A stretch of 64,000 nt of DNA from an uncultured Nitrospirota bacterium (GTDB lineage Bacteria > CG2-30-53-67), in the NCBI GenBank assembly GCA_945786985.1, contig CALZGC010000039.1, positions 495 to 64,494 on the forward strand, read 5' to 3'. Numbering within the stretch: the first letter of the stretch is position 1; every line of letters starts with the position of its first letter. Positions 15,424 through 39,656 of the stretch are shown here, in pieces. The position numbers and the translations under genes are program-made. The notes under the pieces are model-generated. The model was given only the letters and a program-made list of their open reading frames with translations. It was not told where the DNA came from and did no database searches.

Positions 15424-17019
15424 TCAAGAAAAGCGCTTGGCCGTGACGGAAGGGAATTGGGATGCATCGGTGTGCGGCAAAAACATGGCGGCATTTAGCA
15501 GGGGCATGAAATCGCCGTCGACGTTCAGCTCCACGTAGGTCACACGCCGGCTGATCTCTTCGAGTTCCCGTCGTTTTGCATTTGAGAGCAGACAGAGACA
15601 GGCGCCCACGCCGGCACTGTTATGGAGCGCGCGGTAACGAGCCAGGGGAATATCGGGAACCATCCCGATGCTTATGGCCTTTTCAGGGTCGATATAGGCA
15701 CCGAACGTTCCCGCGACGAAAAAATACTCCAGATCGTGGAAGGAAAGCCCCGCCTGGCGCGTCATGACAGTCAGCGCCGTGTACATGGCAGCCTTGGTGC
15801 GAAGCAGATTATCCAGATCGAGCTGGGTCAAGTCGATGGGCGTCCCGGTGCCGCTCTGATCCGCAGGGACCAGCCGATACGCCGTGTGGCCATCCCGTTC
15901 CACAACGCCTTGCGCCCCGATGACAATCTTTCCCCGTTCATCAATCACACCGCTCAGGAAGAGCTCGGCCATCAGATCGATGAGGCCCGATCCGCAGATC
16001 CCTCTGGGGGGGATACGCCCGATGGTGGACCAGGTGGGCCGGAGAGTCTTGCGGTCCATCCGCACCTGATCGATGGCCCCTGGCGCCGCCCGCATCCCGC
16101 AGCCAACGACTCCGCCCTCCAGGGCCGGACCGGCGGCGCCGGCCGCCACCGTCAGCCAGTGCCGATTCCCGAGAACGATCTCGGCATTGGTCCCCACATC
16201 CACGAGCACCGAGAACTTCTCGGCGCGGTGCATCTGCGACACCAGAATGCCGGCCAGCGCGTCCCCGCCGGCGTAACTGCCCACACTGGGAAGGGCATAG
16301 AACACTGCATTTTCATGGACCTCCAAATCGAAATCGCGGGCGGGACAAATCTGCAGGCGATTGACGACGGGACTGTAGGGCTCCCGGCAGAGACGGTGGG
16401 TAGAAAACCCGCAGAAGAGATGCACCATGGTCGTATTCCCGGCCGCGGCCACTGCGTAGACGTGCCGCCGGTCGATACCATTCTTCTGCAGCAGCTTTGC
16501 AAGGGCCCCGTTGATCGCCTGAATCAACACGGTCTGAAGCTCAGCCGCTCCCTCCTCTCTCTCACAATAGTGTATACGGCTCAGGATATCCTCCCCGAAG
16601 CGAACCTGGGGATTCTCGGCGGTCGACTCATCGAGAACGACTCCCCGGTGCAAGTCGAGGAGGTAGAAGACCAGATTGGTCGAACCGAGATCGACGGCCA
16701 GGGCAAAGTTCATCCCGACTTGGTTGCCGGCAGCCGCATCAATCACTTCCGTGCTGCTCTCCTTCACGGCCAGAGTCACTGTCAGCGGGCCGCGGCTTTC
16801 ATAAAGGACCTCCGACAAGTGCCGCACCATGCCCAAGGGCACAGAGGGGTTACGGACATCTGATTGCTTTTCGAGGAGATCCAGCACCCGATCAACGTCG
16901 CCCCGGTTGTCACGAAGACTGGGCAGCGGAACCTCCAGGAAGACCTTGCGCACCAGAGGATCCAACGCATCCCGTGCCAGGAGTTGTCTTGAGTCTTTCG
17001 GGTCAGAGAAGGTCACCAC
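15424..17019 (-). CDS. ASKHA-domain protein (DUF4445, RACo C-terminal-like ATPase without ferredoxin domain)
   Basis: 531 aa with acetate/sugar-kinase fold phosphate motifs (AVDLGSTNLVFYL, VDVGTNAEIVLG, CGSGLIDL) typical of the corrinoid-activase C-terminal domain family. Confidence 0.7.
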   Translation of the reverse strand: MVTFSDPKDSRQLLARDALDPLVRKVFLEVPLPSLRDNRGDVDRVLDLLEKQSDVRNPSVPLGMVRHLSEVLYESRGPLTVTLAVKESSTEVIDAAAGNQVGMNFALAVDLGSTNLVFYLLDLHRGVVLDESTAENPQVRFGEDILSRIHYCEREEGAAELQTVLIQAINGALAKLLQKNGIDRRHVYAVAAAGNTTMVHLFCGFSTHRLCREPYSPVVNRLQICPARDFDLEVHENAVFYALPSVGSYAGGDALAGILVSQMHRAEKFSVLVDVGTNAEIVLGNRHWLTVAAGAAGPALEGGVVGCGMRAAPGAIDQVRMDRKTLRPTWSTIGRIPPRGICGSGLIDLMAELFLSGVIDERGKIVIGAQGVVERDGHTAYRLVPADQSGTGTPIDLTQLDLDNLLRTKAAMYTALTVMTRQAGLSFHDLEYFFVAGTFGAYIDPEKAISIGMVPDIPLARYRALHNSAGVGACLCLLSNAKRRELEEISRRVTYVELNVDGDFMPLLNAAMFLPHTDASQFPSVTAKRFS

Positions 17020-18960
17020 TTATCCTGAGAGGCTCGCATCGTACACCACCGCCCCCATCTCCGATACGTCGTAACCACCGAGTGCCAGAATCATCTCTTT
17101 GAATTCCGGATCGTCCCGCAGAATCCCGAGCAGGCGCTGCATGGCCTCCGTCTCCAGGAAGTCCGACGGAATGGCAAAGTCAAACCGTTCGCGGGCCACG
17201 GGGATAAAGTCCAGAGAGAGCGCCCGGGCCGCCGCCAGAATTCCGACCCCCGCGTCTGCCGTCCCACCGGCCACGGCGGATGCCACCCCCATGTGGGTAT
17301 ACTCCTCCCGTTCGTAACCGCGGATGGCCTCGGGAAGGAACCCCAGTTTTCGCAGGCTTCCCTCGGTCAGCAGTCGGGTGCCGGAGCCCTTCTGGCGGTT
17401 GATAAAGACCAGATCGTCCCGGGCGAGATCCTGGAGTCCCTTGATCCCCTTCGGATTCCCCCGGGGAACCAGCAAGCCCTGCTCCCGGTACACGAGATTG
17501 ACCAACACCATCGGTCGGTCCGGCAGGAGACGCCGCAGAAAGGGTGCGTTGTATTCACCGCTCTCCTCGTCGAGCAGATGGGTACCCGCCAAATGCGCTT
17601 CCCCCCGCTTGATGGCCAGCAGGCCACCCAGACTCCCCACATGGGAGGAGGAGAAGGAGAGCCTCGGATGGCGTTTCTTCAGAACATTCGCCAGGATGTC
17701 CAGGGTGTTGTCGTGACTGCCGATGCAAACCACCGTCTCGGCCAGTTCCGATGTAGACCGGAGCAGCTCGACCCGGACCTCCTCCCCGGCGGCGATCCCC
17801 TCGCTGAGCGCCGGAATGCGGACGATACCGCCCGCCCGCACCAAGGACATGAGCTTCCCGGCCCCCCGGGAGACCGGTGTGGCCACGGTCCGGGGTCCCA
17901 CAACCCCGACCGTGACGCGCACAAACTCTTCCTGTCCGACCGCGGAGCTGATCTGTCGCGACAGAACAGCGGGCACCGTCTGAGGCTCGGGCACGGGACG
18001 CCCTTGACAGGCGAAGAGCAGGGGCTTCACAAAGAGCGACAAGGTCAACACGGCCGAAATGGGATAGCCTGGAATGCCGACTACCGGTTTGTGGTCCACC
18101 ACTCCGAGAATGACCGGTTTTCCGGGCTTGATGCTCACACCCTGTACGAAGACCTCCCCCAGTTCCCGCATAGCGTGAATCGTAAAGTCCTCGCGCCCCG
18201 CCGAAGAGCCGGCGTTGACCACAACCATGTCGGCGCTCTCGAGGGCGGCCTGAATGCCGGCCCGGACGGCTTCCAGCGTATCCGGAACAACATCGTGGCG
18301 CACAGCCCGTCCGCCCCACTCCTGGATGAGTCCGCAGAGAATTCTCGAGTTGAATTCGATGATCTGCCCCTGCTTCGGCGTACATCCGGGCTGGACCAAC
18401 TCGCTGCCGGTGGGAAGCACCCCCACAACGGGAAGCCGGCGTACCTGAAGCTCCGTCAAACCACCGGCCAGGATGGCCCCCAAGTCCACCGGACGAATCT
18501 CATGATTCTCCGGAAGGATCAGCTCCGTGGCCACCAGATCCTCCCCCATGGTCCGTACATGCTTGTAGGGGGTCACCGGAGCGATGATCTCGATTTCGTC
18601 CCGGCCGCAGCAGTCCACCTCCTCGATCATGATGACCGCGTCCATCCCATCGGGGAGGGGATCGCCCGTGTCCACGTAGACGGCCTCCCTGCCGATCCGC
18701 AGACGCTTCGGCCGCGTTTCCGAGGCCCCGACGGTATCCACAAACCGCACGGCCACGCCATCCATCGCAGCCGCGTGATAGCTCGGTGAGGAAAGCCGCG
18801 CCGTCACGGCCTGCGCGGTGATGCGACGCAGGGCGTCGTCCACAGGAATCACTTCGCCCGGTAGCGGCTGCCAAACCCCGTGCCGGGTCAGCACCTCTGT
18901 CCATTTCGCGAGGGCTTCGGACAGGGGCGTGCTTTTCGGGTAAACCTCACGTTTCACCAC
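17020..18960 (-). CDS. moeA: molybdopterin molybdotransferase MoeA fused to a C-terminal periplasmic-binding-protein-like domain
   Basis: N-terminal MoeA domains (AMDGVAV...GDPLPDGMDAVIMIEE...GSSAGREDF...IPGYPISA), then a ~240-aa extension (CIGSHDNTLDILA...GGLLAIKRGEAHLAGTHL) resembling a type-2 PBP/molybdate-binding fold. Confidence 0.85.
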   Translation of the reverse strand: MVKREVYPKSTPLSEALAKWTEVLTRHGVWQPLPGEVIPVDDALRRITAQAVTARLSSPSYHAAAMDGVAVRFVDTVGASETRPKRLRIGREAVYVDTGDPLPDGMDAVIMIEEVDCCGRDEIEIIAPVTPYKHVRTMGEDLVATELILPENHEIRPVDLGAILAGGLTELQVRRLPVVGVLPTGSELVQPGCTPKQGQIIEFNSRILCGLIQEWGGRAVRHDVVPDTLEAVRAGIQAALESADMVVVNAGSSAGREDFTIHAMRELGEVFVQGVSIKPGKPVILGVVDHKPVVGIPGYPISAVLTLSLFVKPLLFACQGRPVPEPQTVPAVLSRQISSAVGQEEFVRVTVGVVGPRTVATPVSRGAGKLMSLVRAGGIVRIPALSEGIAAGEEVRVELLRSTSELAETVVCIGSHDNTLDILANVLKKRHPRLSFSSSHVGSLGGLLAIKRGEAHLAGTHLLDEESGEYNAPFLRRLLPDRPMVLVNLVYREQGLLVPRGNPKGIKGLQDLARDDLVFINRQKGSGTRLLTEGSLRKLGFLPEAIRGYEREEYTHMGVASAVAGGTADAGVGILAAARALSLDFIPVARERFDFAIPSDFLETEAMQRLLGILRDDPEFKEMILALGGYDVSEMGAVVYDASLSG

Positions 18961-18974
18961 GCCTGCCTCCTGCG

Positions 18975-20267
18975 TCAGTCAAAAAGAGCCACCTCCACCT
19001 CCTCTCCCCTCTCCAGGCCGATCCTCTCCTCCGGGATGATCACGGTCCCATGGGCATCGACGAGGGTACGAATCAGGCCCGATTTGCCGAGAATGGGCCG
19101 CGCCCGAATCTGCTCCTCCTCGATCTCGATGGCCACCCGGATATAGTCCTCTCGCCCGGCCACGGAAGAGACGGACCGTGACATTCTGGCCCGAATGACC
19201 GGCCGTCGGAGCGAAGACCAGGGCACCTCCCGAAGGCCCGACAGCAAGCGGAGGACGGGCCTCACAAAGAGGTCAAACCCGATCACAATGGCCGCCGGAT
19301 GTCCGGGCAGGCCGAAAACAGGGGTCTTGCGGACCACGGCACAGATGGTCGGTTTGCCCGGCTTCACCGCCACCCCGTGAACAACGATCCCCGGCCCTCC
19401 CAGCCGTGAAACCACTTCGGCCGTCAGATCTCGTGTGCCGGCGGAGCTTCCGCCGGACAGCACGACCACCTCACACTCCGCCAACGCCCGCAACACGCTC
19501 TCCGTCAGGGCCGCCAGATCATCGGGCACGATGGCATACCGGTCCGGAACCCCGCCCGCCTGTTCGATCAAAGCCGACAGATGATAGCTGTTGATGTCCC
19601 GCACCTGTCCGGGACCGGCCACCTGATGGGGGGGGACGATTTCACTGCCCGTCGGAATGACGGCAACCCGGGGGCGCCTGTAGACGGGCACCCGGGTCAC
19701 ACCCAGGCCGCAGAGCACGCCGATGTCCTGGGGTCGCAGGCGGTGCCCCGCCTGCAGAACGACCTCCCCCTCTTGCACATCGTCGCCGGCCTGAATCACG
19801 TTTTCTCCCGGCGCCACCGATCGGGTGACCTCGATCATCCGATCGTCCACCGGAGCGGTCTGCTCGAACATGACCACGGCATCAGCGCCTTCCGGCAGCA
19901 TCCCCCCCGTGGCGATCTTCATCGCATCCTGGACCCGAACCACGCCGGATGCAGGCACGCCCATCGGAACTTCTCCTGCCATGTTGAGATAGGCAGGCAG
20001 AGCCTCCGTCGCGCCAAAGGTATCCTGCGCCCTTACCGCGTAACCGTCCATGGTGGACCTTGAAAAGACCGGCAGGTCTTCGCTCGACACAATCGGCTGA
20101 CTGATGACCCGGCCCAATGCGCAGACCACGTCGACCCTCTCCTCCCTAAGCTCGAGCACGCCGAGGTGGGAAAAAAAAGTCTCCCGCGCACGCCGACGGG
20201 GCGCCAGTTCGCACCGTCCCAGCATATCTTTCGGCCCCTGGGGCTTCTTTCTGGAAGGATCATCCAT
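18975..20267 (-). CDS. moeA: molybdopterin molybdotransferase MoeA (second paralogue)
   Basis: SRSTMDGYAVRA, GGMLPEGADAVVMFE, LSGGSSAGTRDLT, GLPGHPAAI, and a C-terminal beta-barrel domain. Start uncertain (MDDPS at 20267 or MLGRC at 20225). Confidence 0.88.
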   Translation of the reverse strand: MDDPSRKKPQGPKDMLGRCELAPRRRARETFFSHLGVLELREERVDVVCALGRVISQPIVSSEDLPVFSRSTMDGYAVRAQDTFGATEALPAYLNMAGEVPMGVPASGVVRVQDAMKIATGGMLPEGADAVVMFEQTAPVDDRMIEVTRSVAPGENVIQAGDDVQEGEVVLQAGHRLRPQDIGVLCGLGVTRVPVYRRPRVAVIPTGSEIVPPHQVAGPGQVRDINSYHLSALIEQAGGVPDRYAIVPDDLAALTESVLRALAECEVVVLSGGSSAGTRDLTAEVVSRLGGPGIVVHGVAVKPGKPTICAVVRKTPVFGLPGHPAAIVIGFDLFVRPVLRLLSGLREVPWSSLRRPVIRARMSRSVSSVAGREDYIRVAIEIEEEQIRARPILGKSGLIRTLVDAHGTVIIPEERIGLERGEEVEVALFD

Positions 20268-20448
20268 TGCGCCGCTCTCTCGCTTAAACGTCCGGCGCGC
20301 CCGTTCCCCTGAACCCCGGGCCCGGGCGAAGCCTTTGAAACCTAACAAAAAAATCGGGCAGAAAAATTTATATCACAGCCGGCGGAAGAATGGCAATGGA
20401 ATCTTCATCCTAAAGCCCGAATGACCACCTCTGCCCCCAAAATCAGAC

Positions 20449-20514: not shown

Positions 20515-21039
20515 CTAGTGGGCTTTCTTCAGCGGGACGTGCTCGTGGATTCCCTGCTTCAGGCGCTCCTCGAAATTGAACTCCTTATAGAAGGGGCTCT
20601 TCTCGTTGTGGCATTTGCGGCAGGCGGCCTCATCGGGGAGGATCAGTCCCTTCGCAATCACTTCCTCCCGTTTGTAATCCCGGTTGGTCATCATGACCTT
20701 CATGTAGTCCGACCCGGCACCGTGACAAGCTTCACACTGCACGTTCGGCATGTCCGCGCTGCCGTTGACCGTGTGGCAGGGCAGACAGGTCGCATCCCCC
20801 GTGTAGTCTTTGTTCGGATCGAGCCCGGCAGCCGTCTTGGCCTCGGCCCGGACCCCCGGCTTGAGGTGTTCAAAGACCTTGGCCATTTTGGTGGTCTTCC
20901 AGCTCTTAAACTGTTTCATGTGGCACATCTTGCACTTCTTTACGCCTACATAATCGGCTGCCTGCACTGGGCTCACCCCCAACAGGACAAAAAACAAGAC
21001 TCCCATGAAAATCATTCCGTGTTTGAACATACCCCGCAC
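20515..21039 (-). CDS. tetrahaem c-type cytochrome (periplasmic)
   Basis: Signal peptide MIFMGVLFFVLLGVSPVQA; four CxxCH motifs (CKMCH, CLPCH, CEACH, CRKCH). Confidence 0.85.
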   Translation of the reverse strand: MRGMFKHGMIFMGVLFFVLLGVSPVQAADYVGVKKCKMCHMKQFKSWKTTKMAKVFEHLKPGVRAEAKTAAGLDPNKDYTGDATCLPCHTVNGSADMPNVQCEACHGAGSDYMKVMMTNRDYKREEVIAKGLILPDEAACRKCHNEKSPFYKEFNFEERLKQGIHEHVPLKKAH

Positions 21040-22436: not shown

Positions 22437-23948
22437 ATGGGTTTGCTTCAACATGCGAATTTGAGTCTTAAATTCCGATTTGTCTGTTTTGTCGTCCTGT
22501 TGCTGACACTCACCATCGGTGTTTTCTCCTACTATCTTCTGAAGATTCAGCGCAACCAGCTCATGGATGTCACCCGGGAGAAGCTGCGCGACGTTGCCGA
22601 CACCATCGAGAAGTCCATCCAGACGTCCATGGAGGTCGGCCGCAGTCAGGACGTCAAGCGGATCATCGAAACGGTGGGTTCCCTGCCCGATCTGAAGCAG
22701 GTGCGGATCTTCTCAAAACGGGGCGTCATTCTGATCTCCAACGATCCGGAAGAGGTGGGTGCGACGATCGACAAAGAAGAGATGGAGTTGTTCCGCCAGC
22801 AGAAGTTCTCCACGGTCTACGATATCAAACTGCTCGAGCAGCCGGTGTTCAGGATTGTCCGACCTATCATGAACGAGCCCCGCTGCTATCGTTGCCACGG
22901 TGCCAACCCCAACCAGATTAACGGTGTTCTCGAAGTGGACGTCTCCATGCAGAAGGTTCACGAACGGATGGCATCGGTGAGACGATTCATGACCACCTCA
23001 ACCCTGGTCACACTCGCCGTGCTGATGGTCTCCCTTCTGTTCCTGGTCTCTCACCTGGTCAACCGGCCCATCCAGAGCCTGATCACGACCATGCGAAAAG
23101 CAGAGCGGGGGGACATCACCGCTCGGGTGATTCCCGACGACACCCTTGAATTTGGAGAGCTGGGGCGCAATTTCAATTCCATGATCACCAAACTTCAGAA
23201 GGCACAACACGACCTGGAAGAGATGCACGACCAGCAGATGGAGCGGGTCGATCGCTTCGCTACGATCGGGGAGCTGGCGGCGGGCATCGCCCATGAAATC
23301 AAGAATCCCATCGCCGGTATCGGTGGCGCCATCCAGATCCTCATGGAGGACTTTCCGCGCAACGATCACCGACGGGAGATCTTTGAGGAAATTCTGAAGC
23401 AGATCGACCGAATCGATCAGGACATCAAAGACCTGTTGAGCTACGCGCGAACGGCCAAGCCGACCCTCGAAGAACACGATATCAACAAAGTGATTCAGCA
23501 GGCCCTGTTCCTCATCCGTGACCGGGCGGCGCAACAGCGGGTGGAGGTACTCACCGAATTGAGTGAGAAGCTCCCCTCCATCGAGATCGATGAAAAACAG
23601 ATCCAGCAGGTGCTCGTGAACCTCGGCTTGAACGCCATTCAAGCGATGCCGAACGGCGGCGTGCTGAAAATAACCTCCGCCGTTGACGATAGCTCACAGG
23701 ATCCAGAATTCGCGGCGATTCGCGTGGAAGACACGGGGCGTGGGATTTCTCCGAAAAACATTTCGAAGATCTTTACACCCTTCTTTACCACCCGTCACAC
23801 CGGTACCGGCCTGGGGCTGCCCATCAGCCAGAAAATTATTAACCATCACCACGGCACCATCGAAGTCAAGAGCCAGCCCGGCGACGGCACCTGCTTCACG
23901 CTGAGACTGCCGCTGACACGGGCCGGTTTCATGGCACGAGGAGAATAG
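22437..23948 (+). CDS. sensor histidine kinase (two TM helices, periplasmic domain with one CxxCH motif, HAMP, HisKA, HATPase)
   Basis: TM1 FVCFVVLLLTLTIGVFSYYLL; periplasmic segment ending PRCYRCHGANP; TM2; HAMP; H-box IAHEIKNPIAGI; ATPase G-boxes (VEDTGRGI, GTGLGLPIS). Confidence 0.9.
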   Translation: MGLLQHANLSLKFRFVCFVVLLLTLTIGVFSYYLLKIQRNQLMDVTREKLRDVADTIEKSIQTSMEVGRSQDVKRIIETVGSLPDLKQVRIFSKRGVILISNDPEEVGATIDKEEMELFRQQKFSTVYDIKLLEQPVFRIVRPIMNEPRCYRCHGANPNQINGVLEVDVSMQKVHERMASVRRFMTTSTLVTLAVLMVSLLFLVSHLVNRPIQSLITTMRKAERGDITARVIPDDTLEFGELGRNFNSMITKLQKAQHDLEEMHDQQMERVDRFATIGELAAGIAHEIKNPIAGIGGAIQILMEDFPRNDHRREIFEEILKQIDRIDQDIKDLLSYARTAKPTLEEHDINKVIQQALFLIRDRAAQQRVEVLTELSEKLPSIEIDEKQIQQVLVNLGLNAIQAMPNGGVLKITSAVDDSSQDPEFAAIRVEDTGRGISPKNISKIFTPFFTTRHTGTGLGLPISQKIINHHHGTIEVKSQPGDGTCFTLRLPLTRAGFMARGE

Positions 23949-23951
23949 CGG

Positions 23952-24305
23952 ATGCATTCCGAGAGAAGAAGCTCTCCTCGGGTTCCCGTCTCGGTCACCG
24001 TCACCTACCGGGTGGACGGCCACGAGAGAGAGGGAACCTACCGGGTGGAATCGGTGAATGTAAGCGAGGGCGGTGTTTTCGTTGCCACCGACGTGCCCCT
24101 GGGACTCGGGACGGAGGTACATCTGGAGTTTCACCTTCCGAATCAGAGTGAGTCCATTCAGGCTTCCGGAAGGATCGTCTGGTACGGCCGGGCGGAAACA
24201 GCCGGAGGGGGGATGGTCCTGGGGAAAGGCATTCAGTTCACAGATTGTACGGAGCGGTGCCGTCAGCACCTGGCAACCTATGTGGCTCAATACCAAAGGT
24301 CGTAG
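23952..24305 (+). CDS. PilZ-domain protein (c-di-GMP receptor candidate)
   Basis: RxxxR (RRSSPR) and N/DxSxxG (NVSEGG) PilZ motifs. Starts 4 nt after the kinase stop. Confidence 0.8.
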   Translation: MHSERRSSPRVPVSVTVTYRVDGHEREGTYRVESVNVSEGGVFVATDVPLGLGTEVHLEFHLPNQSESIQASGRIVWYGRAETAGGGMVLGKGIQFTDCTERCRQHLATYVAQYQRS

Positions 24306-25986
24306 AAGAAGACCGTTTTGCCCCGCAAGACGCGCGCGCGCGCCGGGTGGAGCGCTGTTACTCCTGACCGCCTTGGCAATCCTGCATGTCGGCTGCGGCA
24401 ATCCGCCGGTGAGTCTCCCGAATGGCAAGGAGGCCATCACCATCGGCGGTTCTGCCTCGCCCGCGCCCATCGTCAAGGCGCTGGTACGGGCGTACGGGCA
24501 GAAGCACCCCGGCGACAAGATTCAGTTTCTGCCAGATGTCCATTCGACCGGGGGCATTCTGGGGGTGGCGGACGGCACGCTCGATATGGGTTTTGTGTCA
24601 CGGGCGCTCACCCCGGAAGAGGACAGATATGCGCTGCTCCGGTACCCCTTTGCCCTGGACATTGTGGTGTTCGCGACCCATCCGGGTGTGCAGGTGGCCG
24701 AACTCTCCACACGTGAAGTGCTGGACATCTATTCGGGAAAAATCTCTAACTGGAAAGAACTGGGCGGTCCCGATCTGGCCGTTGTGGTATTGGACCGGCC
24801 GGAACATTCCTCGGCGAAGCAGGCGCTGCGCCAGTCGCTGTTCGGCGAAGACTTTTCCTGCCGGCCGGACGCCCTGGTACTGGAGCGCGTCAATCAGATG
24901 GACGACGCCCTCCAGACCATAACCGGCAGTATTGGCTACACGTCCTACAGCAATCTCTTTGCACGCAAATTTGATATCCCCCTCCTACGGCTGGACGGCA
25001 CTCTGCCGACCGTTTGGAATCTCGAGCGGCGCATCAGTAAAACCTATCGACAGTACGCCTTCGTGATCAAGGGGCGCCCGGAGCACCTGGTCAAGCGCTT
25101 TCTCAAGTTCGTGTACAGCCAGACCGCACAGGAGATCATCCGAACCAACGGGTTGGTCCCCGAGCGGCGCAAAGTCACCATCGCCTTTGCTCCGGAAATC
25201 AACCTTATGGAGCAGGAAACCCGTTACATCCCGCTGTTCAACTATCTCCACCGGAAAAGCGGAATCTTCATCGATATGAAATACTCGGCCAGCTATTCCC
25301 ACCTCATCCAGGATCTTGTGGCAAAGAGGTTTGACGGGGCCCTGCTCGGAAGCTTCGCCTACGGCCTGATCAATGAACAGGCTCCCCTGGAAGTACTCGG
25401 GCGGCCCGTCATCAACGGCCAGAGCTTTTACACGGGCATTCTGTTCGTACGGAAAGATAGTGGGATCAGGAACCTGGAGGATCTGCGGGGGAAGACATTC
25501 AGTTTCGTCGACCGGGCCACCACGGCGGGCTATCTTTTCCCCCTGCTCTACTTCAAACAGCACGGCATCACCGCGCCGGAGGACTTTTTCGAGAAAACCC
25601 TTTTCTCGGGAAGTCACGATGCATCCATCATGGCGGTTCTGAACGGACAAGCCGACGCGGCAGCGGCTAAGGATCTCGTTGTCATGCGGGTGGGCGAAAA
25701 GGACGTCCGGGTGGCCCTCGAACTTCTCATGCTGGCTACGTCTCTGCCGGTACCGACCAACGGGCTCTGTGTCAACCAGAGCCTCGACTGGGATTTACAA
25801 GAAGATTTGCAGAAGGTGCTACTGGGAATGGAGGAGGATCCGGAGGGACGGCAAGTGTTGAAACGCTTCGGTGCCGAACGTTTCCTGCCCACGACGCACC
25901 GGGATTACCAGAACCTATATGTCATGCTGAAAGAACTCGGCATCGACCCTGCAACTTATTTAAGTAGGCATAAAGGCACCCCTTGA
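24280..25986 (+). CDS. fused periplasmic binding protein: PstS-like phosphate-binding domain plus PhnD/SsuA-like domain
   Basis: Lipoprotein signal LLLLTALAILHVGC. N-half IGGSASPAPIVKAL...GSIGYTSYS (PBP-like-2); C-half TTAGYLFPLLYF...LNGQADAAA (PhnD-like). The only in-frame start overlaps the PilZ 3' end. Confidence 0.75.
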   Translation: MWLNTKGRRRRPFCPARRARAPGGALLLLTALAILHVGCGNPPVSLPNGKEAITIGGSASPAPIVKALVRAYGQKHPGDKIQFLPDVHSTGGILGVADGTLDMGFVSRALTPEEDRYALLRYPFALDIVVFATHPGVQVAELSTREVLDIYSGKISNWKELGGPDLAVVVLDRPEHSSAKQALRQSLFGEDFSCRPDALVLERVNQMDDALQTITGSIGYTSYSNLFARKFDIPLLRLDGTLPTVWNLERRISKTYRQYAFVIKGRPEHLVKRFLKFVYSQTAQEIIRTNGLVPERRKVTIAFAPEINLMEQETRYIPLFNYLHRKSGIFIDMKYSASYSHLIQDLVAKRFDGALLGSFAYGLINEQAPLEVLGRPVINGQSFYTGILFVRKDSGIRNLEDLRGKTFSFVDRATTAGYLFPLLYFKQHGITAPEDFFEKTLFSGSHDASIMAVLNGQADAAAAKDLVVMRVGEKDVRVALELLMLATSLPVPTNGLCVNQSLDWDLQEDLQKVLLGMEEDPEGRQVLKRFGAERFLPTTHRDYQNLYVMLKELGIDPATYLSRHKGTP

Positions 25987-26004
25987 GCCGAGAGACAAGA
26001 ATCG

Positions 26005-27780
26005 ATGGGTCATCTTGACACACAGAAACCGGCCAGTCCCACGATGAGATTGCTCGAGCCCTGGCGCAAAGCCAGTCTTCGAACAAAGGTGTTGATTCCC
26101 TTCCTGGTCATCTTCGTTATTTCGATGCTTCTGGGCACCTATTACTTTCTTAACGTCGTGCTCCGGATGATCGAGTCCCGCATCGAGGAACAACTCCGAG
26201 GCAGTGCGACCCACATTACCCAGGAGCTTCTTCAACAGGAACAACGTATTCTGCACCATGCCCAGAACATGGTGGAAATCAAACTATTGGCCGATCAGAC
26301 ACCGGATACCAATCAGGCAAGATTGCTTCAGATACACGAACTGCAGGCCCTGCGCACCGGGAGCATCCGATTCCTAGGCGTTTACGGAAAGGATCTCTCG
26401 GCCGGGGATCCCCTGTATCCCCTTGTACAAAAAGGTCTGCGGGGGCTTCGTGTCACTGCCCTCATTCAAAGGGATGACCCGGCTGGCACCTCGTGGCATC
26501 TGGTGGGGGTGGCCCCGGTTCCCGCGCCAGCATGGACCGTCGAAGTAGTCCTGCTGGAAACGGTGCTGGATCGAAGCTTTCTCGAGGAGTTGGGAAAACG
26601 TTTCGGTGCAGACGTTGCCCTTTACGATCGTCAGGGCGACCCCATGGCGGAAACGGGATACCAGACGGACAATACGAAAGGTCCTGCTCTGCACGCGCGG
26701 GTACAAGCTGCAGCCGCGCTGCCGGCGGACACCCATCTGCTTGTGCCACAGATGCTGAACGTAGGCGGCACGCCCTACAAGGCAATGTTAGCACCCTTCA
26801 CCGTCAATTACGAACCGGCCGGCACCATCGCCGTCATGATACCGGTGCAGGGATTTCTCTCGACGCGAACACTGGTCGTCGGGCAGGCGGTGGCGTACGC
26901 ACTGATTATCATCATCGGCATGAGTCTGCTCTATCTCCTGATCGTGAGAGGGATCACGGTCCCGTTGAAAGCGCTGGAGAAGGGCGCTCAGCGGATGATG
27001 GCGGGCGCGCCGGTCGAGGGTATCGAGACCCCGTCTGGCGATGAAGTGGGGACCCTCACGCACACCTTCAACGAGATGTCCCGGTCCCTGCAGCACCGGG
27101 AAAAGCAACTGCGGGTGAAAGCCCGGGAGTTCGAGAACAAAACAGAGGAACTCAATGCCATACTGGAACACATGGCCGACAGCGTCGTGGTCCTGAACCG
27201 GGATTACCGGATCGAATACATGAACCGGGCCGCCGTGGACGCCTTCGACGAGAGGGTCGGTGAGAAATGCTACAAAGTCTTTTATGGCAAGGACGAACCC
27301 TGCCACCCCTGTTCCATTGATGAGATCTTGCGCAAGAAGCAGCCTGTCTTTCAGTACAGTTCCGCCGATCCCAGAGGTAAATATTATGAAGTCATCGCCC
27401 AGCCGCTGCACCAGGTAAACGGCGAAGACAAGGTCATTACGATCCGACGGGACATTACGCAGCAGCGGCTGCGCATTGCAGAGCAGAGAAAAATGGAGAA
27501 GAAGATTCAGCAAGAGCGCCTGGCCGCCATCCAGCAGGTGGTCGTGAGCATTAAACATACCGTCAACAATTCATTAACCGCCATCTTCGGGTCGCTGGAG
27601 CTTCTCAAACAAAAGGACTGTAAACTCTCCGAAAAGGACCGGGAAATCGTTGGCATTATCGAATCGGAGTCGGATAAAATCAAGAGCGTTGTCTCCAAGC
27701 TGTCGAATATCACGGACCCGGTGGTGACCCAGTACACGGAGGATGTGACCATGATCGACTTGGATGACCCGTCGGTCTGA
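26005..27780 (+). CDS. membrane sensor protein HAMP–PAS–HisKA, lacking an ATP-binding (HATPase) domain
   Basis: TM helix; large extracytoplasmic domain; TM2 (AYALIIIIGMSLLYLLIV); HAMP; PAS (contains CHPC); DHp-like helix (VVVSIKHTVNNSLTAI). The ORF ends ~60 aa later with no N/G1/F/G2 boxes. Confidence 0.75.
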   Translation: MGHLDTQKPASPTMRLLEPWRKASLRTKVLIPFLVIFVISMLLGTYYFLNVVLRMIESRIEEQLRGSATHITQELLQQEQRILHHAQNMVEIKLLADQTPDTNQARLLQIHELQALRTGSIRFLGVYGKDLSAGDPLYPLVQKGLRGLRVTALIQRDDPAGTSWHLVGVAPVPAPAWTVEVVLLETVLDRSFLEELGKRFGADVALYDRQGDPMAETGYQTDNTKGPALHARVQAAAALPADTHLLVPQMLNVGGTPYKAMLAPFTVNYEPAGTIAVMIPVQGFLSTRTLVVGQAVAYALIIIIGMSLLYLLIVRGITVPLKALEKGAQRMMAGAPVEGIETPSGDEVGTLTHTFNEMSRSLQHREKQLRVKAREFENKTEELNAILEHMADSVVVLNRDYRIEYMNRAAVDAFDERVGEKCYKVFYGKDEPCHPCSIDEILRKKQPVFQYSSADPRGKYYEVIAQPLHQVNGEDKVITIRRDITQQRLRIAEQRKMEKKIQQERLAAIQQVVVSIKHTVNNSLTAIFGSLELLKQKDCKLSEKDREIVGIIESESDKIKSVVSKLSNITDPVVTQYTEDVTMIDLDDPSV

Positions 27781-27867
27781 TCGAATCCCCCCACCTGTCG
27801 AGGGAGACAGCCAGTACCCTGTCCGGAACTGACGGTCTGAAGTCATTGCAATAAGGAGTTAACCGAT

Positions 27868-29238
27868 ATGGCAAAAGCAAGAATTCTTGTGGTGGACGAC
27901 GAAAAACTGATCCGCTGGTCTCTGAAGGAGAATCTGGAGAAGGAGAAATACGAAGTCTACACGGCCAGCACCGGCGAAGAAGCGCTGGAGCTGATCCATG
28001 AGGAATTGCCCGATCTGATTCTCCAGGACATCAAACTCCCCGGAGTCAGCGGCCTTGAGATTCTCGAAGAAGTGAAGAAACTGCGAGAGGAGTCCTTGGT
28101 CATCATGATGACGGCCTACGGGGACATCAACACCTCCGTCAAGGCCATGAAGCTCGGCGCCTACGACTTCGTCGAAAAACCTTTCGTTTTCGACAAATTA
28201 AAGCTCACCATCGCCAAGGCTCTCGAAACGGTCAATCTCAAGAAGGAGGTGCATGTTTTCAAGAGTCAGCAGAAGGCCCAGTTCCGCCTGGACAATGTGG
28301 TGGGCCAGTCAGACTCAATGAACCGCGTTTTCAAAATGGTGGAGAAACTCTCCCGTAGTGACGCCACGACGGTGCTCCTGCAGGGAGAGAGCGGAACGGG
28401 GAAGGATGTCATTGCAAAGGCCATTCATTATCAGAGCCGCCGGGCGGAGGCACCGTACATGGAGATCAACTGCACGTCCCTGCCCGACACGCTCATCGAA
28501 AGTGAGCTTTTCGGGCATGAAAAGGGCGCCTTCACGGACGCGAGAGCCATGAAGAAGGGGCTCTTCGAAATCACCGACGGGGGTACCATTCTCCTGGACG
28601 AAATCGGGGATATGCCCTTGAGCACGCAGTCCAAACTGCTTCGAGTCATCGAAAACAAAGCCTTTAAACGCCTCGGAGGCGTCAAGGATATCGTCGTCGA
28701 TGTAAGAATCATCGCCGCGACGAACAAGGACCTGAAGCAGGCGTCCGCAGGGGGCAGCTTTCGGGAGGATCTCTACTATCGACTGAAAGTATTCCCCATC
28801 TATCTACCTACCCTGCGGGACCGGTCGGAAGACATCCCCCTGCTGGTCCGGCACTTCGTCACTACCTTCAATCATGAATTCAAGAAGAACGTGCGCGGCA
28901 TTTCGCCGGAGGCCCAGGATATGATGATGGCCTACCACTGGCCGGGAAACGTCCGGGAGCTGAAGAATGTCATTGAACGGGCAATAATCCTCGAAAGCGA
29001 AGACGTTATTCTGCCCGAACATCTCCCCCTGGAAGTGGTCCGACCCGAGCCGGTCACGAATCCCCACGGCTCATCCATTCAGCTTCCCGCCGAAGGGGTT
29101 TCGCTGTCGGAAGTGGAGAGAGAGCTGATTGAGCAGGCCTTGGCCACATCGAAAGGCAACCAGGTCCATGCAGCCAAATTGCTTCGCATGAGTCGGGACA
29201 CCCTTCGCTATCGTATGAAGAAACACGATCTGCTCTGA
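27868..29238 (+). CDS. sigma-54-dependent response regulator (NtrC family: REC, AAA+, HTH)
   Basis: REC (VVDDEKLIRW...D at LILQD), Walker A GESGTGKD, GAFTDA sigma-54 contact motif, C-terminal Fis-type HTH. Confidence 0.93.
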   Translation: MAKARILVVDDEKLIRWSLKENLEKEKYEVYTASTGEEALELIHEELPDLILQDIKLPGVSGLEILEEVKKLREESLVIMMTAYGDINTSVKAMKLGAYDFVEKPFVFDKLKLTIAKALETVNLKKEVHVFKSQQKAQFRLDNVVGQSDSMNRVFKMVEKLSRSDATTVLLQGESGTGKDVIAKAIHYQSRRAEAPYMEINCTSLPDTLIESELFGHEKGAFTDARAMKKGLFEITDGGTILLDEIGDMPLSTQSKLLRVIENKAFKRLGGVKDIVVDVRIIAATNKDLKQASAGGSFREDLYYRLKVFPIYLPTLRDRSEDIPLLVRHFVTTFNHEFKKNVRGISPEAQDMMMAYHWPGNVRELKNVIERAIILESEDVILPEHLPLEVVRPEPVTNPHGSSIQLPAEGVSLSEVERELIEQALATSKGNQVHAAKLLRMSRDTLRYRMKKHDLL

Positions 29239-29545: not shown

Positions 29546-29561
29546 TGGTACGGGAATTGCA
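29546..29561 (+). promoter_or_regulatory. sigma-54 (−24/−12) promoter for the regulator–cytochrome operon
   Basis: TGGTACGGGAATTGCA matches the TGGCAC-N5-TTGCW spacing exactly, ~58 nt upstream of ATG 29619. An A/T inverted repeat (TTTTTTCCTTGAAAAAA, ~29462) and direct repeats (GCAAATCCGG...CCAAATCCGG, ~29250–29283) lie further upstream. Confidence 0.6.
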
Positions 29562-29618: not shown

Positions 29619-29996
29619 GTGCATAAAAACATCCTGGTCGTTGATGATGAGAAGCTTGTCCGGTGGACCATCCAGCAATCCATGGGGAAACAGAATGTCC
29701 GAGTGGTCTCCGCTGCAACCGGGGCGGAAGCCATGGAGAAGCTCCGGGAAGAACGTTTTGACATCATCATCACCGACTACGTCATGCCCGGGTTCAATGG
29801 CATTGAAGTGGCTCGCCGGGCCCGCCTGCTTCAGCCGGAGAGCAAGATTATCATGATTACAGCCCACGAAATGATTCTGGACCGGGATGAGGCGGACCGG
29901 GCGGGCGTGAGCAGTATCATCAACAAGCCGTTCATGATCAGTGAGGTCAGAAACATCATCTCGGATCTCCTGTCGGAACAGAGAGACTCTGCATAA
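29619..29996 (+). CDS. single-domain response regulator (CheY-like)
   Basis: VVDDEKLVRW...IIITDYVMPG...phospho-Asp pocket. Its stop overlaps the start of the next gene (TAATG). Confidence 0.88.
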   Translation: MHKNILVVDDEKLVRWTIQQSMGKQNVRVVSAATGAEAMEKLREERFDIIITDYVMPGFNGIEVARRARLLQPESKIIMITAHEMILDRDEADRAGVSSIINKPFMISEVRNIISDLLSEQRDSA

Positions 29997-31348
29997 TGAT
30001 TCCTACGCGTATACTTTGTATCACAGCACTCTTGCTATGTCTTTACACACAACTGACCCTGGCGCCGGTGGAAGGGGCCGACGCGCTACCTCATGCCGGC
30101 CTGGCCGACGCCGCACCGGAGGTCTGCTTCAAATGCCACAAGGATCTTGCCACGCCCCCCGAAGGAGGCGTCGTGCATGCAGCCTTCGGAATGGGAGACT
30201 GTTCCATCTGCCATCTGCTGGGAGCGGACAACCGGTTCCAACTCATAGACACCGGCGCCGGCCTCTGTTACATGTGTCACGATGCGAAAAACACCCAGGC
30301 CAAGGTCCACAGCCCCGTAGCCTCAGGGGACTGCATCTTGTGTCACAATCCGCACCAGTCCCCCAACCCGAAGATGCTCATGGACTATCCGGTGAACAAG
30401 CTTTGCTTCAACTGCCACGATGAAGCGATGGCAAAGCATGCCTACGTCCATGTTCCCGTCTCAGAAGGGGAATGCACGAGCTGCCACGACCCCCATCAAT
30501 CGCCGCACGACAAACAGCTTCGGGAAGAGGGAAACAACCTATGCCTCATGTGTCATGCGGACAAAGAAGAGGATCTGAAGACCAAGAAACACGTGCATGA
30601 GGCCGTCGAAATGGTGGGGTGCACGGGCTGCCACAGTCCGCATGCCTCGGACACCAAATACCAGCTGCTCAGCGCACCCCCTGACCTCTGCTACACCTGC
30701 CACTCCGACAAAGAGGGGCCGGTGAAAACGCCGCACGGCGCCATCGAGATGAAAGGGAGCTGCGTCAACTGTCATGACCCCCATGCCTCCGACCATGAAG
30801 CACAATTAAAGGCTGCGGAAAACAAAGACCTCTGTCTCAAGTGTCACGATCGCAGGCGGAAGACAAAAAGCGGCTATATCCTCAACATGAAGGCCCATCT
30901 GGAAAAGAACCCGGAGCACCACGGGCCCATATTAATGGGAGACTGCGCGTCCTGCCACAACCCGCACGGCTCCGACGAATGGCGGATGCTGAAAAAACCT
31001 TTTCCGGCGGAGTTTTACGTCCCCTTTAAGCTGGAACGCTATGGCCTCTGTTTCGAATGCCATGACGAATCACTGGTTCTGGACGAGAACACGACGGCCA
31101 ACGGGTTCAGAAATGGCGAGATGAACCTGCATTTTGTCCACGTGAGCGATCCCCGTAAGGGTAGACGGTGCGTCGTCTGCCACGACGCCCATGCAGCCCA
31201 AGGACCGAAACATGTTCGGGAGACCGCCAAATTCGGGTCATGGGACCTTCCCATACGCCTCGAACTCCTGGAAGACGGCGGACGCTGTGCCCCCGGATGT
31301 CATCTCCCCCGGGCATACAACCGTAGCAAACCGGTAAAAAACAGGTGA
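29996..31348 (+). CDS. multihaem c-type cytochrome (14 CxxCH plus a C-terminal CxxxCH)
   Basis: Signal peptide. Motifs CFKCH, CSICH, CYMCH, CILCH, CFNCH, CTSCH, CLMCH, CTGCH, CYTCH, CVNCH, CLKCH, CASCH, CFECH, CVVCH, CAPGCH. Recurrent CxxCHxPHxS spacing typical of doubled-CXXCH/c7-type polymers. Confidence 0.9.
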   Translation: MIPTRILCITALLLCLYTQLTLAPVEGADALPHAGLADAAPEVCFKCHKDLATPPEGGVVHAAFGMGDCSICHLLGADNRFQLIDTGAGLCYMCHDAKNTQAKVHSPVASGDCILCHNPHQSPNPKMLMDYPVNKLCFNCHDEAMAKHAYVHVPVSEGECTSCHDPHQSPHDKQLREEGNNLCLMCHADKEEDLKTKKHVHEAVEMVGCTGCHSPHASDTKYQLLSAPPDLCYTCHSDKEGPVKTPHGAIEMKGSCVNCHDPHASDHEAQLKAAENKDLCLKCHDRRRKTKSGYILNMKAHLEKNPEHHGPILMGDCASCHNPHGSDEWRMLKKPFPAEFYVPFKLERYGLCFECHDESLVLDENTTANGFRNGEMNLHFVHVSDPRKGRRCVVCHDAHAAQGPKHVRETAKFGSWDLPIRLELLEDGGRCAPGCHLPRAYNRSKPVKNR

Positions 31349-31519: not shown

Positions 31520-31535
31520 TGGCACAGCTCTTGCT
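31520..31535 (+). promoter_or_regulatory. sigma-54 (−24/−12) promoter for the 4-haem cytochrome gene
   Basis: TGGCACAGCTCTTGCT, a perfect TGGCAC-N5-TTGC. Followed by a ~175-nt leader before ATG 31710. Confidence 0.65.
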
Positions 31536-31709: not shown

Positions 31710-32378
31710 GTGTACATCATGAAAAAAGTATCCGCTATCATCTTTGCCATCATTTTCGCAGCCATGACGGCGGGCGTTGCCGTCGCCGGCCCCGGACCTG
31801 GAACCGGGATTTCGGGATCCAAGCATGACCTCAGCGGCTTGGTCCCCGGAGAGGTCCAGCTCTGCATCTACTGCCATGCGCCCCACAACGGAACCGGAGC
31901 CGCAGGCGGCCTTCTCTGGAATCATTCGCCGTCGGCAGCAACCTACAATATGTATACCGAGGAGGCTGCGAGTGACCCCGCTTTCGCGAACTTCATCAAC
32001 GGCGCGCAGGATGCGGAGCCGACGGGCTCTGCAAAACTCTGCCTGAGCTGTCATGACGGCACGGTGGCCATCGACGCCTACGGTGGCGCTGCAGGGACGG
32101 TCAACATGACCGCCTTTCCCAACGCTAATCTGGGCCTCGACCTGTCGGACGACCACCCCATCTCCATCGTCTACGATGACGCGGCTGATCTCGGTCTGTT
32201 TCCGAAGGCCGCCGTCAACCTGGGTGCGGTGAATCTCACGGACATTCTCGAGAACGACAAAATCAACTGCGTGGCCTGCCACGATGTGCACAACTCTCCC
32301 GGAGAGACTGTGGACGCTCCCTTCGTCAGGGTGACCATGACCGGCAGTGCTCTCTGCCTGAGGTGCCACGACAAATAA
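31710..32378 (+). CDS. tetrahaem c-type cytochrome (doubled-CXXCH-type)
   Basis: Signal peptide. SKHDLS motif, then CIYCH, CLSCH, CVACH, CLRCH. Confidence 0.88.
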   Translation: MYIMKKVSAIIFAIIFAAMTAGVAVAGPGPGTGISGSKHDLSGLVPGEVQLCIYCHAPHNGTGAAGGLLWNHSPSAATYNMYTEEAASDPAFANFINGAQDAEPTGSAKLCLSCHDGTVAIDAYGGAAGTVNMTAFPNANLGLDLSDDHPISIVYDDAADLGLFPKAAVNLGAVNLTDILENDKINCVACHDVHNSPGETVDAPFVRVTMTGSALCLRCHDK

Positions 32379-32409
32379 GCCTTGGCATGATCCTCAACCG
32401 AATGCAGCA

Positions 32410-32442
32410 AAGCCCCTATGAGATTTCATAGGGGCTTTTTTG
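32410..32442 (+). terminator. Rho-independent terminator
   Basis: GCCCCTATGAGATTTCATAGGGGC hairpin followed by TTTTTT. Confidence 0.7.
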
Positions 32443-32610
32443 GGGCTCTCACCGAGGAAATCTTTGGCAAGCGTCCACTGCAAAGGGGGGTTTTTCGACG
32501 GCATCGGATGGACTGGGCACAGAATCGAGGCACCGCAGTCAGGGCAAAGGAATCTTTCGGCCCTCGAGTGTGGGGTGCGATAGCGTGTCAATTTTGCCTT
32601 AAATACTTTA

Positions 32611-32639
32611 TTGACACGTTTGAACCTGCATGATAAACT
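32611..32639 (+). promoter_or_regulatory. candidate sigma-70-type promoter for the NHL-lipoprotein operon
   Basis: TTGACA-N17-TAAACT, ~80 nt upstream of ATG 32716. Confidence 0.3.
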
Positions 32640-32715
32640 TGAATATATTCAAAAGGTTAGCTTGTCAGGAAAGTGCCCAGATCTTTCAGCATCATTCCAA
32701 TTGGAGACAGAGAAG

Positions 32716-35169: not shown

Positions 35170-35266
35170 GCACCCGTAGAAATACCACAAAACACAGTGC
35201 GAACGCCCCCGCAGGCCGACCCATACCGCCTGCGGCGGGTTAGTCCTCATGGGAGGATACCCAGGC

Positions 35267-36349: not shown

Positions 36350-36391
36350 CCCGGAAATGTCGTCAACGAGCTTTTTGAGCCAGGGCTTTTC

Positions 36392-39618: not shown

Positions 39619-39656
39619 GGACGGACGACTCCCTTTTGCACAGTGGAGGAATCAAC

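Follow-up and report, generated by a model that had tools for sequence, protein, structure and literature searches.

A sensor without an ATPase domain as the candidate phosphatase arm of a two-sensor signalling cassette in an uncultured Nitrospirota bacterium

What does a membrane sensor contribute to signalling when it carries a phosphoacceptor-type histidine and has no ATPase domain of its own? The question is raised by a 64-kb stretch of DNA from an uncultured Nitrospirota bacterium (contig CALZGC010000039.1; this whole stretch is referred to here as the window), in which a signalling cassette at positions 22437 to 29238 encodes two sensors. Its five open reading frames (ORFs), all on the + strand and separated by 3 nucleotides (nt), an overlap, 18 nt, and 87 nt, encode a histidine kinase with a CxxCH motif (HK1), a PilZ protein, a double binding lipoprotein, a sensor lacking the catalytic ATPase (CA) domain (P4), and an NtrC-type activator, in that order. 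Beyond 29238 follow a predicted sigma-54-type promoter and then genes for a single-domain receiver and a 14-haem cytochrome. An earlier reading of this DNA from its letters alone (the sequence-only reading) had described five co-directional, tightly spaced genes, and in every structural detail this description proved correct; our domain calls, made with Pfam and NCBIfam scans, place HATPase_c in the first gene of the cassette only. Tentatively, with a probability of roughly 0.4, we interpret P4 as a binding-protein-coupled, kinase-dead phosphatase arm that opposes HK1.

P4 (591 amino acids [aa]; 26005 to 27780, + strand) consists of a transmembrane helix, a dCache domain, a second transmembrane helix, a HAMP domain, a PAS domain with a cysteine triad, a dimerization and histidine phosphotransfer (DHp) domain, and a conserved tail that runs to the stop codon. 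Pfam matched HAMP, PAS_4, HisKA, and, weakly, dCache_3, confirming the earlier description of a fourth protein with a HAMP domain, a CHPC-bearing PAS domain, and a DHp helix with a candidate phosphohistidine but no CA domain. The HisKA match (residues 511 to 566, E value of 8.9e-7) is above the gathering score, and H518, in the motif KHTVNN (nt 27553 to 27570), aligns with the H-box phosphohistidine of ThkA (3A0R). The triad comprises C422, C433, and C436 (nt 27268 to 27312), and the CHPC string corresponds to residues 433 to 436. The tail (residues 577 to 591, nt 27733 to 27777) opens with YTEDVTMIDLD (nt 27733 to 27765). In an AlphaFold2 (AF2) model of P4, which has a predicted local distance difference test (pLDDT) score of 67 and an input alignment of 9 sequences, the first transmembrane helix is followed by a tandem PAS-like periplasmic domain, the second transmembrane helix, HAMP, PAS, and a two-helix DHp (residues 485 to 535 and 543 to 568); the ~22 residues after the DHp are of low confidence and disordered. 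Foldseek searches with the periplasmic part of this model returned dCache ligand-binding domains (PctA) and the periplasmic domain of LuxQ, the latter at a TM score (TMt) of about 0.6.

No Pfam match to HATPase_c was found in P4, and only 73 residues separate the histidine from the stop codon. The sequence-only reading had named a CA domain encoded in another frame, hidden by a frameshift, as the result that would overturn it. With the HK1 CA domain as the query, a search of every reading frame in the 64 kb recovered HK1 as the sole match, and the 87 nt after P4 lead into an ORF that starts with an intact receiver; a frameshifted or hidden CA domain was therefore rejected. The same six-frame scan placed DHp domains only in HK1 and P4 and receivers only in the activator and in a 125-aa ORF at 29619 to 29996. 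Moreover, the lack of a CA domain is shared by 29 relatives of P4. The missing CA domain of P4 is thus genuine and ancient and is not an artefact.

These relatives were collected by a phmmer/HMMER search of 1.84 billion representatives, a profile search, and a genome pattern scan that returned 80 loci (labels such as L001 denote relatives' loci and labels such as P0005 relative proteins). Nine orthologues of P4, at 50 to 84% identity and 578 to 598 aa, all lack HATPase_c. Six more distant relatives (P0019, P0037, P0041, P0065, P0077, and P0156) are 27 to 41% identical over the PAS and DHp domains and stop just after the DHp, and the profile search added a set of soluble versions of about 236 aa. 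In all 29 tabulated members the histidine lies 71 to 96 residues from the C terminus. The pattern scan mostly caught the PAS domain, and distant CA-less members came from the exhaustive phmmer search only; apart from L002 and L003, the 24 pattern-scan loci that match through the end of the DHp have at least about 150 further residues and were set aside as normal kinases.

Three conserved elements characterize the family. The first, in the PAS domain, is the invariant triad C-Y ... P-C-x-x-C (C-x10-C-x2-C). The CHPC string that the sequence-only reading had singled out is present and belongs to this triad, but its reading as a c-type haem motif fails: it is not CxxCH, its histidine is not conserved, and other members have CDPC (P0005), CSPC, CRNC, or CVHC. 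The second is an H-box of the form (S/T/G)-(I/L)-K-H-x-(I/L/V)-N-N-x-L. Among the 29 members the histidine is invariant, the asparagine at H+4 is found in 29 and that at H+3 in 28, and position H+1 is occupied by K (12), G (11), T (3), H (1), R (1), or E (1), so that it is acidic only once; P4 itself has T. The third is the C terminus, Y-x5-M-(I/L/V)-D-L-(D/E), in which Y, M, and D are invariant and beyond which there is no more than a short extension, acidic or disordered. This terminal motif looks like the entry to a normal CA domain, with its linker and first strand, retained though the domain itself is gone.

In four HisKA kinases, only the kinase reaction depends on the acidic residue at H+1 and only the phosphatase reaction on the N or T at H+4 (Willett & Kirby 2012, PMC3510030). 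Because the acid at H+1 has been lost and the asparagine at H+4 is fixed, this rule predicts that the family is kinase dead and phosphatase competent. Its probable origin can be read from complete homologues. At L092/L093, a 625-aa complete kinase with the H-box AHEIKNPL lies directly downstream of a double binding protein, and its sensor and HAMP domains are homologous to those of P4 (24% identity, E value of 6e-27). At L094, from the Deferrisomatales, a 695-aa complete kinase with the H-box AHDFNNVL is again directly downstream of a double binding protein; it aligns with P4 from the first transmembrane helix through the cysteine PAS and DHp domains and then runs on into a CA domain. Since these complete homologues follow the same binding protein, P4 appears to be a CA-less derivative of binding-protein-coupled kinases. 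Neither the Pfam nor the NCBIfam scan matched a dedicated model for the family, whose members carry the public name "hypothetical protein" or generic names, and we found no description of the family, its H-box, or its tail in the literature consulted. HisKA-only "incomplete histidine kinases" (iHK, in P2CS) are already a recognized annotation class.

The second sensor of the cassette is of a different kind. HK1 (503 aa; 22437 to 23948, + strand; Pfam HAMP, HisKA, and HATPase_c) has a periplasmic sensor between two transmembrane helices, followed by HAMP, HisKA (3e-14), and HATPase_c, with the H-box AHEIKNP at nt 23289 to 23309; its nearest NCBIfam families are AtoS and ZraS. The motif CYRCH (residues 150 to 154, nt 22884 to 22898) lies in the PAS-like periplasmic domain. 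Over 125 residues this sensor aligns with Geobacter GSU0935 (3B42; E value of 2.7e-5), with CYRCH in register with CQSCH, and it gives subthreshold to borderline Pfam matches to Mcp40H-20_sensor and Tll0287-like. The CxxCH motif is kept in four HK1 orthologues (L002, L003, L083, and L095), and the kinases of L082 and L085 are homologous to HK1 in their cytoplasmic domains and lack the haem motif. The periplasmic domain of HK1 is therefore a putative c-type-haem PAS sensor of the GSU0935 kind. Together with the activator described below, HK1 looks like a direct pair of an AtoS/ZraS-like kinase and an AtoC/ZraR-like regulator.

We next consider the gene directly upstream of P4. It encodes a lipoprotein with two fused solute-binding domains (24280 to 25986, + strand), whose start codon is uncertain, as the frame is open from 24073; the lipobox is LHVGC (nt 24382 to 24396). 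Residues 51 to 281 match the PstS-like PBP_like_2 and residues 301 to 543 match Phosphonate-bd (PhnD/PtxB/ArrX/AioX-like; 4e-60), which substantiates the PstS/PhnD-like binding protein noted earlier inside the cassette. Among structures in the Protein Data Bank, the best match is the phosphite-binding PtxB (4e-27), followed by PstS (3e-26), ArrX (4e-20), and AioX (5.5e-15); PtxB, ArrX, and AioX match the C-terminal half. The PstS/PhnD fusion is a wider family (37 to 59% identity), and in every context that we read, a gene for a membrane sensor lies directly downstream. No ABC transporter genes are found in the cassette. Both ArrX and AioX serve signalling, in three-component systems whose last member is a sigma-54 activator (PMC5908839). 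The gene order and these matches suggest that the binding protein is most probably the co-sensor of P4.

Between HK1 and the lipoprotein lies the stand-alone PilZ protein (117 aa; 23952 to 24305, + strand; TIGR02266), likewise as the sequence-only reading had it (Pfam PilZ, 2.4e-18). Both cyclic di-GMP (c-di-GMP) motifs, RxxxR and (D/N)xSxxG, are present, as RSSPR (nt 23967 to 23981) and NVSEGG (nt 24057 to 24074). Orthologues occur in L001, L002, L003, L083, and L095; all keep RxxxR, and the motif serine is replaced by A or G in L003 and L001. Tuning of a kinase/phosphatase balance by c-di-GMP has precedents in HapZ-SagS (PMC12564702) and in c-di-GMP control of CckA (PMC5026420).

The last gene of the cassette encodes an NtrC/AtoC-type sigma-54 activator (456 aa; 27868 to 29238, + strand; Pfam Response_reg, Sigma54_activat, AAA_lid_14, and HTH_8; NCBIfam AtoC, 1.4e-142, and the LuxO model, 9e-113). 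It has a receiver with Asp54, an AAA+ domain, and a C-terminal helix-turn-helix. Its sigma-54 contact loop is GAFTDA (nt 28525 to 28542), and all five orthologues (window, L001, L002, L003, and L095) have GAFTDA or, in two of them, GAYTDA, never GAFTGA. Both variants are listed as functional and activation competent among the enhancer-binding proteins of Desulfovibrio vulgaris (PMC4641369).

The earlier reading had also placed three sigma-54 promoters next to the activator gene; two predicted sites were found and a third was not identified. In a weighted scan of the + strand of the window, only the elements at 29546 and 31520 reached the maximal score, and both are directly downstream of the activator gene. 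The first (TGGTACGGGAATTGCA; 29546 to 29561, + strand) is a sigma-54-type -24/-12 element about 57 to 60 nt upstream of the receiver gene, with equivalents in L001 (6313) and L095 (TGGTCTGAATTTTGCA). The second (TGGCACAGCTCTTGCT; 31520 to 31535, + strand), ahead of a 4-haem cytochrome gene at 31710 to 32378, is a consensus element and the sole exact TGGCAC-N5-TTGC in the window; it is kept in all four loci that cover it, the counterparts being in L002 (15532), L001 (8291), and L095 (10605). Because the 29546 site is degenerate in L002 and L003, we weighted only the 31520 site as conserved. In L002, the closest relative (84%), the region at 13482 to 14009 has a degenerate receiver-proximal element (TGGTTCGAGAATCACC) between conserved flanks, and the second site is intact. 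The candidate with the next-best score, at 29798, was discounted, as it lies inside the receiver gene. An inverted-repeat search of both promoter regions for shared activator sites gave nothing shared or convincing.

Both response regulators of the sequence-only reading exist, the second outside the coordinates of the cassette. It is a single-domain receiver (125 aa, GTG start; 29619 to 29996, + strand; Pfam Response_reg, 6.4e-26) whose gene overlaps the start of the 14-haem cytochrome gene and is translationally coupled to it. It is also found in L001, L002, L003, L095, and L087. The receiver is 38% identical to that of the activator, with nearly identical alpha1 helices (DDEKLVRW versus DDEKLIRW), and the L087 receiver shows the same likeness. 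As kinases recognize receivers mainly through alpha1 and these helices match, the two receivers probably have partners in common.

Domain content, conservation, synteny, and motif statistics are the direct results here, and from them we infer each step of phosphoryl flow and the promoter-regulator link in the following mechanism. HK1, sensing through its predicted haem, would autophosphorylate and then phosphorylate the activator directly; being complete, of the ZraS/AtoS type, and equipped with an H-box, it should need no intermediary to reach an AtoC/ZraR-like regulator. The phosphorylated activator would open the sigma-54 promoters of the receiver-cytochrome operon and of the cytochrome, NHL, and barrel genes that follow. 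P4 would serve solely as a phosphatase under signal control, with the phosphorylated activator and the paralogous single receiver as its substrates. Two inputs may set its activity: the lipoprotein would dock on its LuxQ-like dCache domain and report a periplasmic oxyanion, and the cysteine-triad PAS domain would report the cytoplasmic redox or metal state. PilZ could act as a c-di-GMP-dependent adaptor on one of the two sensors. Finally, the receiver, itself driven by sigma-54, would compete with the activator for the same DHp surfaces and so provide feedback.

Several points weigh against this assignment of P4. To our knowledge, phosphatase activity of a DHp without a CA domain is on record only for EnvZ domain A. 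The invariance of the histidine (29/29) is explained as well or better by phosphotransfer, and a pure phosphatase might not need it; phosphatase-active histidine mutants of NtrB and EnvZ exist. A phosphatase model gives no role to the conserved, predicted-disordered Y-x5-MIDLD tail, and the AF2 model of P4, with the score and alignment depth given above, is of moderate confidence. L083 has the kinase-PilZ-P4 trio without an adjacent activator gene, so that the kinase rather than the regulator would be the universal partner and a mechanism directed at the kinase fits as well. The oxyanion ligand of the binding protein is putative, and the promoters are predicted, with the upstream one degenerate in two relatives.

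The company kept by the family bears on these alternatives. The full order of CxxCH kinase, PilZ, binding protein, P4, activator, receiver, and cytochromes is found again in L002 (84%) and, with identity taken from the binding protein, in L095 (49%). L001 (54%) covers the 3' end of the kinase gene onward through the cytochrome and NHL genes, L003 (51%) is a partial copy that stops soon after the receiver gene, and L096, a shorter second place found with L095, has the kinase, PilZ, the binding protein, and the start of a P4-like gene. The recurrence of this order in five loci at 49 to 84% identity exceeds chance; the named relatives are Nitrospirota metagenome-assembled genomes. Elsewhere the surroundings vary: L083 has a kinase (CFRCH), PilZ, and the P4-like gene; L085/L086 a kinase, a small bAvd-like insert, an activator, and the P4-like gene; L087 the 3' end of an activator gene, the P4-like gene, and a receiver; and L089 a receiver, a kinase, and the P4-like gene, with a second kinase-activator pair nearby. 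At L082, a kinase and an activator are followed by HemA and GGDEF genes and then the P4-like gene, with the GGDEF gene in the place of PilZ. L084, L088, and L091 are short contigs and are uninformative or nearly so. In every informative locus (window, L001 to L003, L095, L083, L082, L085/L086, L087, and L089), the family member has as its neighbour a complete kinase (HAMP-HisKA-HATPase), an NtrC-type activator, or both, often in company with a c-di-GMP element and a single receiver. Eight of the recovered cassettes or contexts reach past the family gene, and each has such a neighbour.

Two of these loci have further features. The insert in L085 (2406 to 2777) and L086 (2284 to 2655), between kinase and activator, is a 123-aa gene of the bAvd/23S-rRNA-IVP family, whose members are usually linked to diversity-generating retroelements. 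In L082 (5209 to 7802), the genes between the activator and the CA-less protein encode HemA, the glutamyl-tRNA reductase with which haem synthesis starts, together with a GGDEF cyclase, an arrangement that hints at a link of the module to haem supply and c-di-GMP.

The sequence-only reading had proposed trans-phosphorylation or a phosphorelay through P4. In such a scheme H518 would be phosphorylated, either in trans by the CA domain of HK1, inside a mixed complex of the two, or by back-transfer from the single receiver, and P4 would then donate the phosphoryl group to the activator; in its relay form, a His-Asp-His-Asp chain would run from HK1 through the receiver and P4 to the activator, with the sensors of P4 gating the flow. 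The invariant histidine, aligned with the phosphohistidine of ThkA, fits this well, as does the complete kinase counted as a constant neighbour of the family and the single-domain receiver that accompanies it in the window clade, L087, and L089. Phosphorylation of one kinase by another is known from Myxococcus, where EspC acts on EspA, and there are relays that run through Spo0B and ChpT. In split kinases such as CheA3/CheA4, a His-bearing, CA-less protein is phosphorylated by its partner (PMC3591291). However, the acid at H+1, which HisKA kinases need to accept a phosphoryl group from ATP (PMC3510030), is missing in 28 of the 29 members, and HK1 has an intact H-box of the type that phosphorylates NtrC-type regulators directly and is therefore not half of a split kinase. 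No receiver gene lies next to the P4-like gene at L082, L083, or L085, and that of the window, being behind a predicted sigma-54 promoter, would be one of the system's outputs and not a relay step ahead of them. Taken together, the H-box and the completeness of HK1 do not favour transfer through P4, and we regard it as unlikely.

We judge it rather less likely still that P4 is a noncatalytic modulator in the manner of RetS or DivL, which would bind HK1 through DHp-DHp contacts or the MIDLD tail and, depending on the inputs to P4, allosterically block or stimulate its autokinase or phosphatase state, with no phosphoryl chemistry on P4. A complete kinase is counted as the only universal neighbour of the family, given the lack of an activator at L083, although adjacency is itself no evidence of contact; the C-terminal motif, conserved and predicted to be disordered, has the look of a docking peptide; and RetS and DivL structures are among the DHp homologues of HK1. 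Pseudokinase regulators are also an established class (PMC9430884, PMC12963549). Against this, strict conservation of the histidine and of the asparagines at H+3 and H+4 down to 27% identity is unexpected for an H-box without chemistry. DivL, by comparison, has replaced its histidine. The DHp domains of P4 and HK1 are also only weakly similar (29% over 56 residues), which gives no particular sign that they could form heterodimers. That P4 is a truncated or frameshifted kinase gene in an ordinary pair of two-component systems is highly improbable: its tail (...ITDPVVTQYTEDVTMIDLD) does resemble a DHp-CA linker and first CA strand (compare LLSYARTAKPTLEEHDINKV of HK1), but there is no room after P4 and no CA-like sequence in any frame, and the end point and tail motif, with Y, M, and D invariant, are shared by 29 proteins from independent assemblies and distant lineages.

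The phosphatase interpretation of P4 can be widened to the whole family, although we consider this wider reading less likely than not. Proteins that combine the cysteine-triad PAS domain, K-H-x-x-N-N, and Y-x5-MIDLD may constitute an unrecognized ancient family of transmitters, in which the ATPase domain was never present or was lost long ago and which serve as signal-gated phosphatases or gated histidine phosphotransferases alongside a complete kinase, so that the on and off functions are split over two sensors. In this Nitrospirota lineage, periplasmic haem redox state, a periplasmic oxyanion, cytoplasmic redox or metal state, and c-di-GMP might then jointly set expression of the cytochrome cluster.

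This putative target cluster begins with the secreted multihaem cytochrome (450 aa, 14 CxxCH; 29996 to 31348, + strand; Pfam Paired_CXXCH_1), its first structural gene, which is syntenic in L001, L002, and L095. According to Pfam matches and haem counts, the remainder (31710 to 42387, + strand) encodes the 4-haem cytochrome, an NHL/Cds6_C protein, a 5-haem lipoprotein, a 680-aa secreted protein, an NHL lipoprotein, an 11-haem cytochrome, and a SurA-like peptidyl-prolyl isomerase. Its regulation by the cassette is suggested by position and the sigma-54 sites only. The 680-aa protein (36392 to 38434, + strand), between the 5-haem and NHL lipoproteins, has a signal peptide, no Pfam match, many alternating aromatic and polar residues, and an aromatic-rich FFVRLRRFF stretch near its C terminus, and L001 has a 660-aa counterpart in the same place; it may form the outer-membrane barrel of a conduit of the porin-cytochrome type. 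The NHL beta-propeller at 32611 to 35169 (+ strand) has three Cds6_C NTF2-like domains, and the 5-haem cytochrome at 35249 to 36349 (+ strand) also ends in Cds6_C, an unusual pairing.

Further features flank these genes. Two genes upstream of the cassette, a small secreted 4-haem c554-type cytochrome is encoded divergently (20515 to 21039, - strand). The region at 15424 to 20348 (- strand) encodes a RACo-like reductive activase, a 646-aa fusion of MoeA with a PBP_like domain of the periplasmic-binding type, and an additional plain MoeA, and looks like a molybdenum-cofactor neighbourhood; a MoeA/MobB pair is also found near the P4-family member in L089. Downstream, the genes at 43553 to 45688 and 47123 to 50038 (both - strand) encode large secreted proteins with MopE-type putative copper-binding motifs (6 and 4 matched stretches) and 10 and 12 CxxCH motifs, respectively.

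Bifunctional histidine kinases normally carry both activities on one protein under one sensor. If the phosphatase interpretation is correct, the cassette would be a natural case in which kinase and phosphatase activities are divided between two independently regulated receptors, and expression of a cytochrome cluster resembling those of extracellular electron transfer would be set jointly by several inputs. Modelling of split kinases predicts ultrasensitive or bistable responses from such a design (PMC3591291). The cassette also offers a testable regulatory entry point into the multihaem cytochrome/NHL/barrel clusters of uncultivated Nitrospirota, and the K-H-x-x-N-N and terminal MIDLD signature distinguishes such incomplete kinases from truncated genes in annotation.

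Comparison with known systems places the cassette between several of them. It resembles AioXSR and ArrXSR in having a PhnD/PtxB-family binding protein beside a membrane sensor and an NtrC-type sigma-54 activator, without ABC transporter genes, and in having a respiratory or redox enzyme cluster as its controlled target, which in our case is a proposed one. It differs in that the binding protein is lipid anchored and fused to a second, PstS-like domain, its ligand is putative (proteins of the AioX type bind an arsenic oxyanion, AioX by means of a Cys ligand), the adjoining sensor lacks an ATPase domain, and the cassette adds a putative haem kinase, a PilZ protein, and a further receiver. With LuxP-LuxQ of Vibrio it would share the docking of a binding protein on a tandem-PAS/dCache periplasmic domain, although the match to LuxQ is at the level of fold only, with sequence identity of about 13 to 15%. 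Ligand binding switches LuxQ towards phosphatase activity, and LuxO is an NtrC-type sigma-54 activator. In contrast to P4, LuxQ is a complete hybrid kinase with both a CA domain and a receiver, neither of which P4 has, and uses the histidine phosphotransfer protein LuxU. On the input side, the periplasmic PAS domain of HK1 is comparable with those of Geobacter GSU0582 and GSU0935 (3B47 and 3B42) and with Tll0287, its CxxCH being in register with that of GSU0935; the Geobacter haem PAS domains sit on chemoreceptors, whereas that of HK1 sits on a HisKA/HATPase kinase and its haem is predicted from the sequence. A likeness to HapZ-SagS and to c-di-GMP control of CckA lies in the single-domain PilZ protein with intact motifs, which here is encoded between two sensor genes and may have HK1 or P4 as a partner.

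Split or incomplete kinases (CheA3/CheA4 of Rhodobacter sphaeroides, Hik36/Hik43, HK1/HK2 of Mycobacterium tuberculosis, and the iHK of P2CS) also have a CA-less His protein beside a CA-bearing one, and in CheA3/CheA4 the CA-less partner is also the phosphatase (PMC3591291). Their ATPase partner, however, lacks the phosphohistidine, whereas HK1 of the cassette has both HisKA with AHEIKNP and HATPase_c, and P4 has full sensory domains of its own together with a family-specific H-box and tail. Like Spo0B, ChpT, RetS, and DivL, P4 would be a DHp-type four-helix bundle that does not autophosphorylate and that modulates or relays the signalling of a true kinase. Of these four, Spo0B and ChpT lack sensors, are soluble, and have a CA-like fold, while P4 has two transmembrane helices, dCache, HAMP, and PAS domains; RetS and DivL keep a degenerate CA domain, while P4 ends about 22 residues past its DHp. 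The missing CA domain thus keeps P4 from counting as a kinase, and the histidine of HK1 keeps the pair from counting as a split kinase; nor is P4 of the Spo0B/ChpT type, being a full transmembrane sensor without a CA-like fold. By analogy, the cassette would work like binding-protein-coupled sensing of the AioXSR/LuxPQ type combined with a split kinase/phosphatase design, while falling outside the definition of each of these named families.

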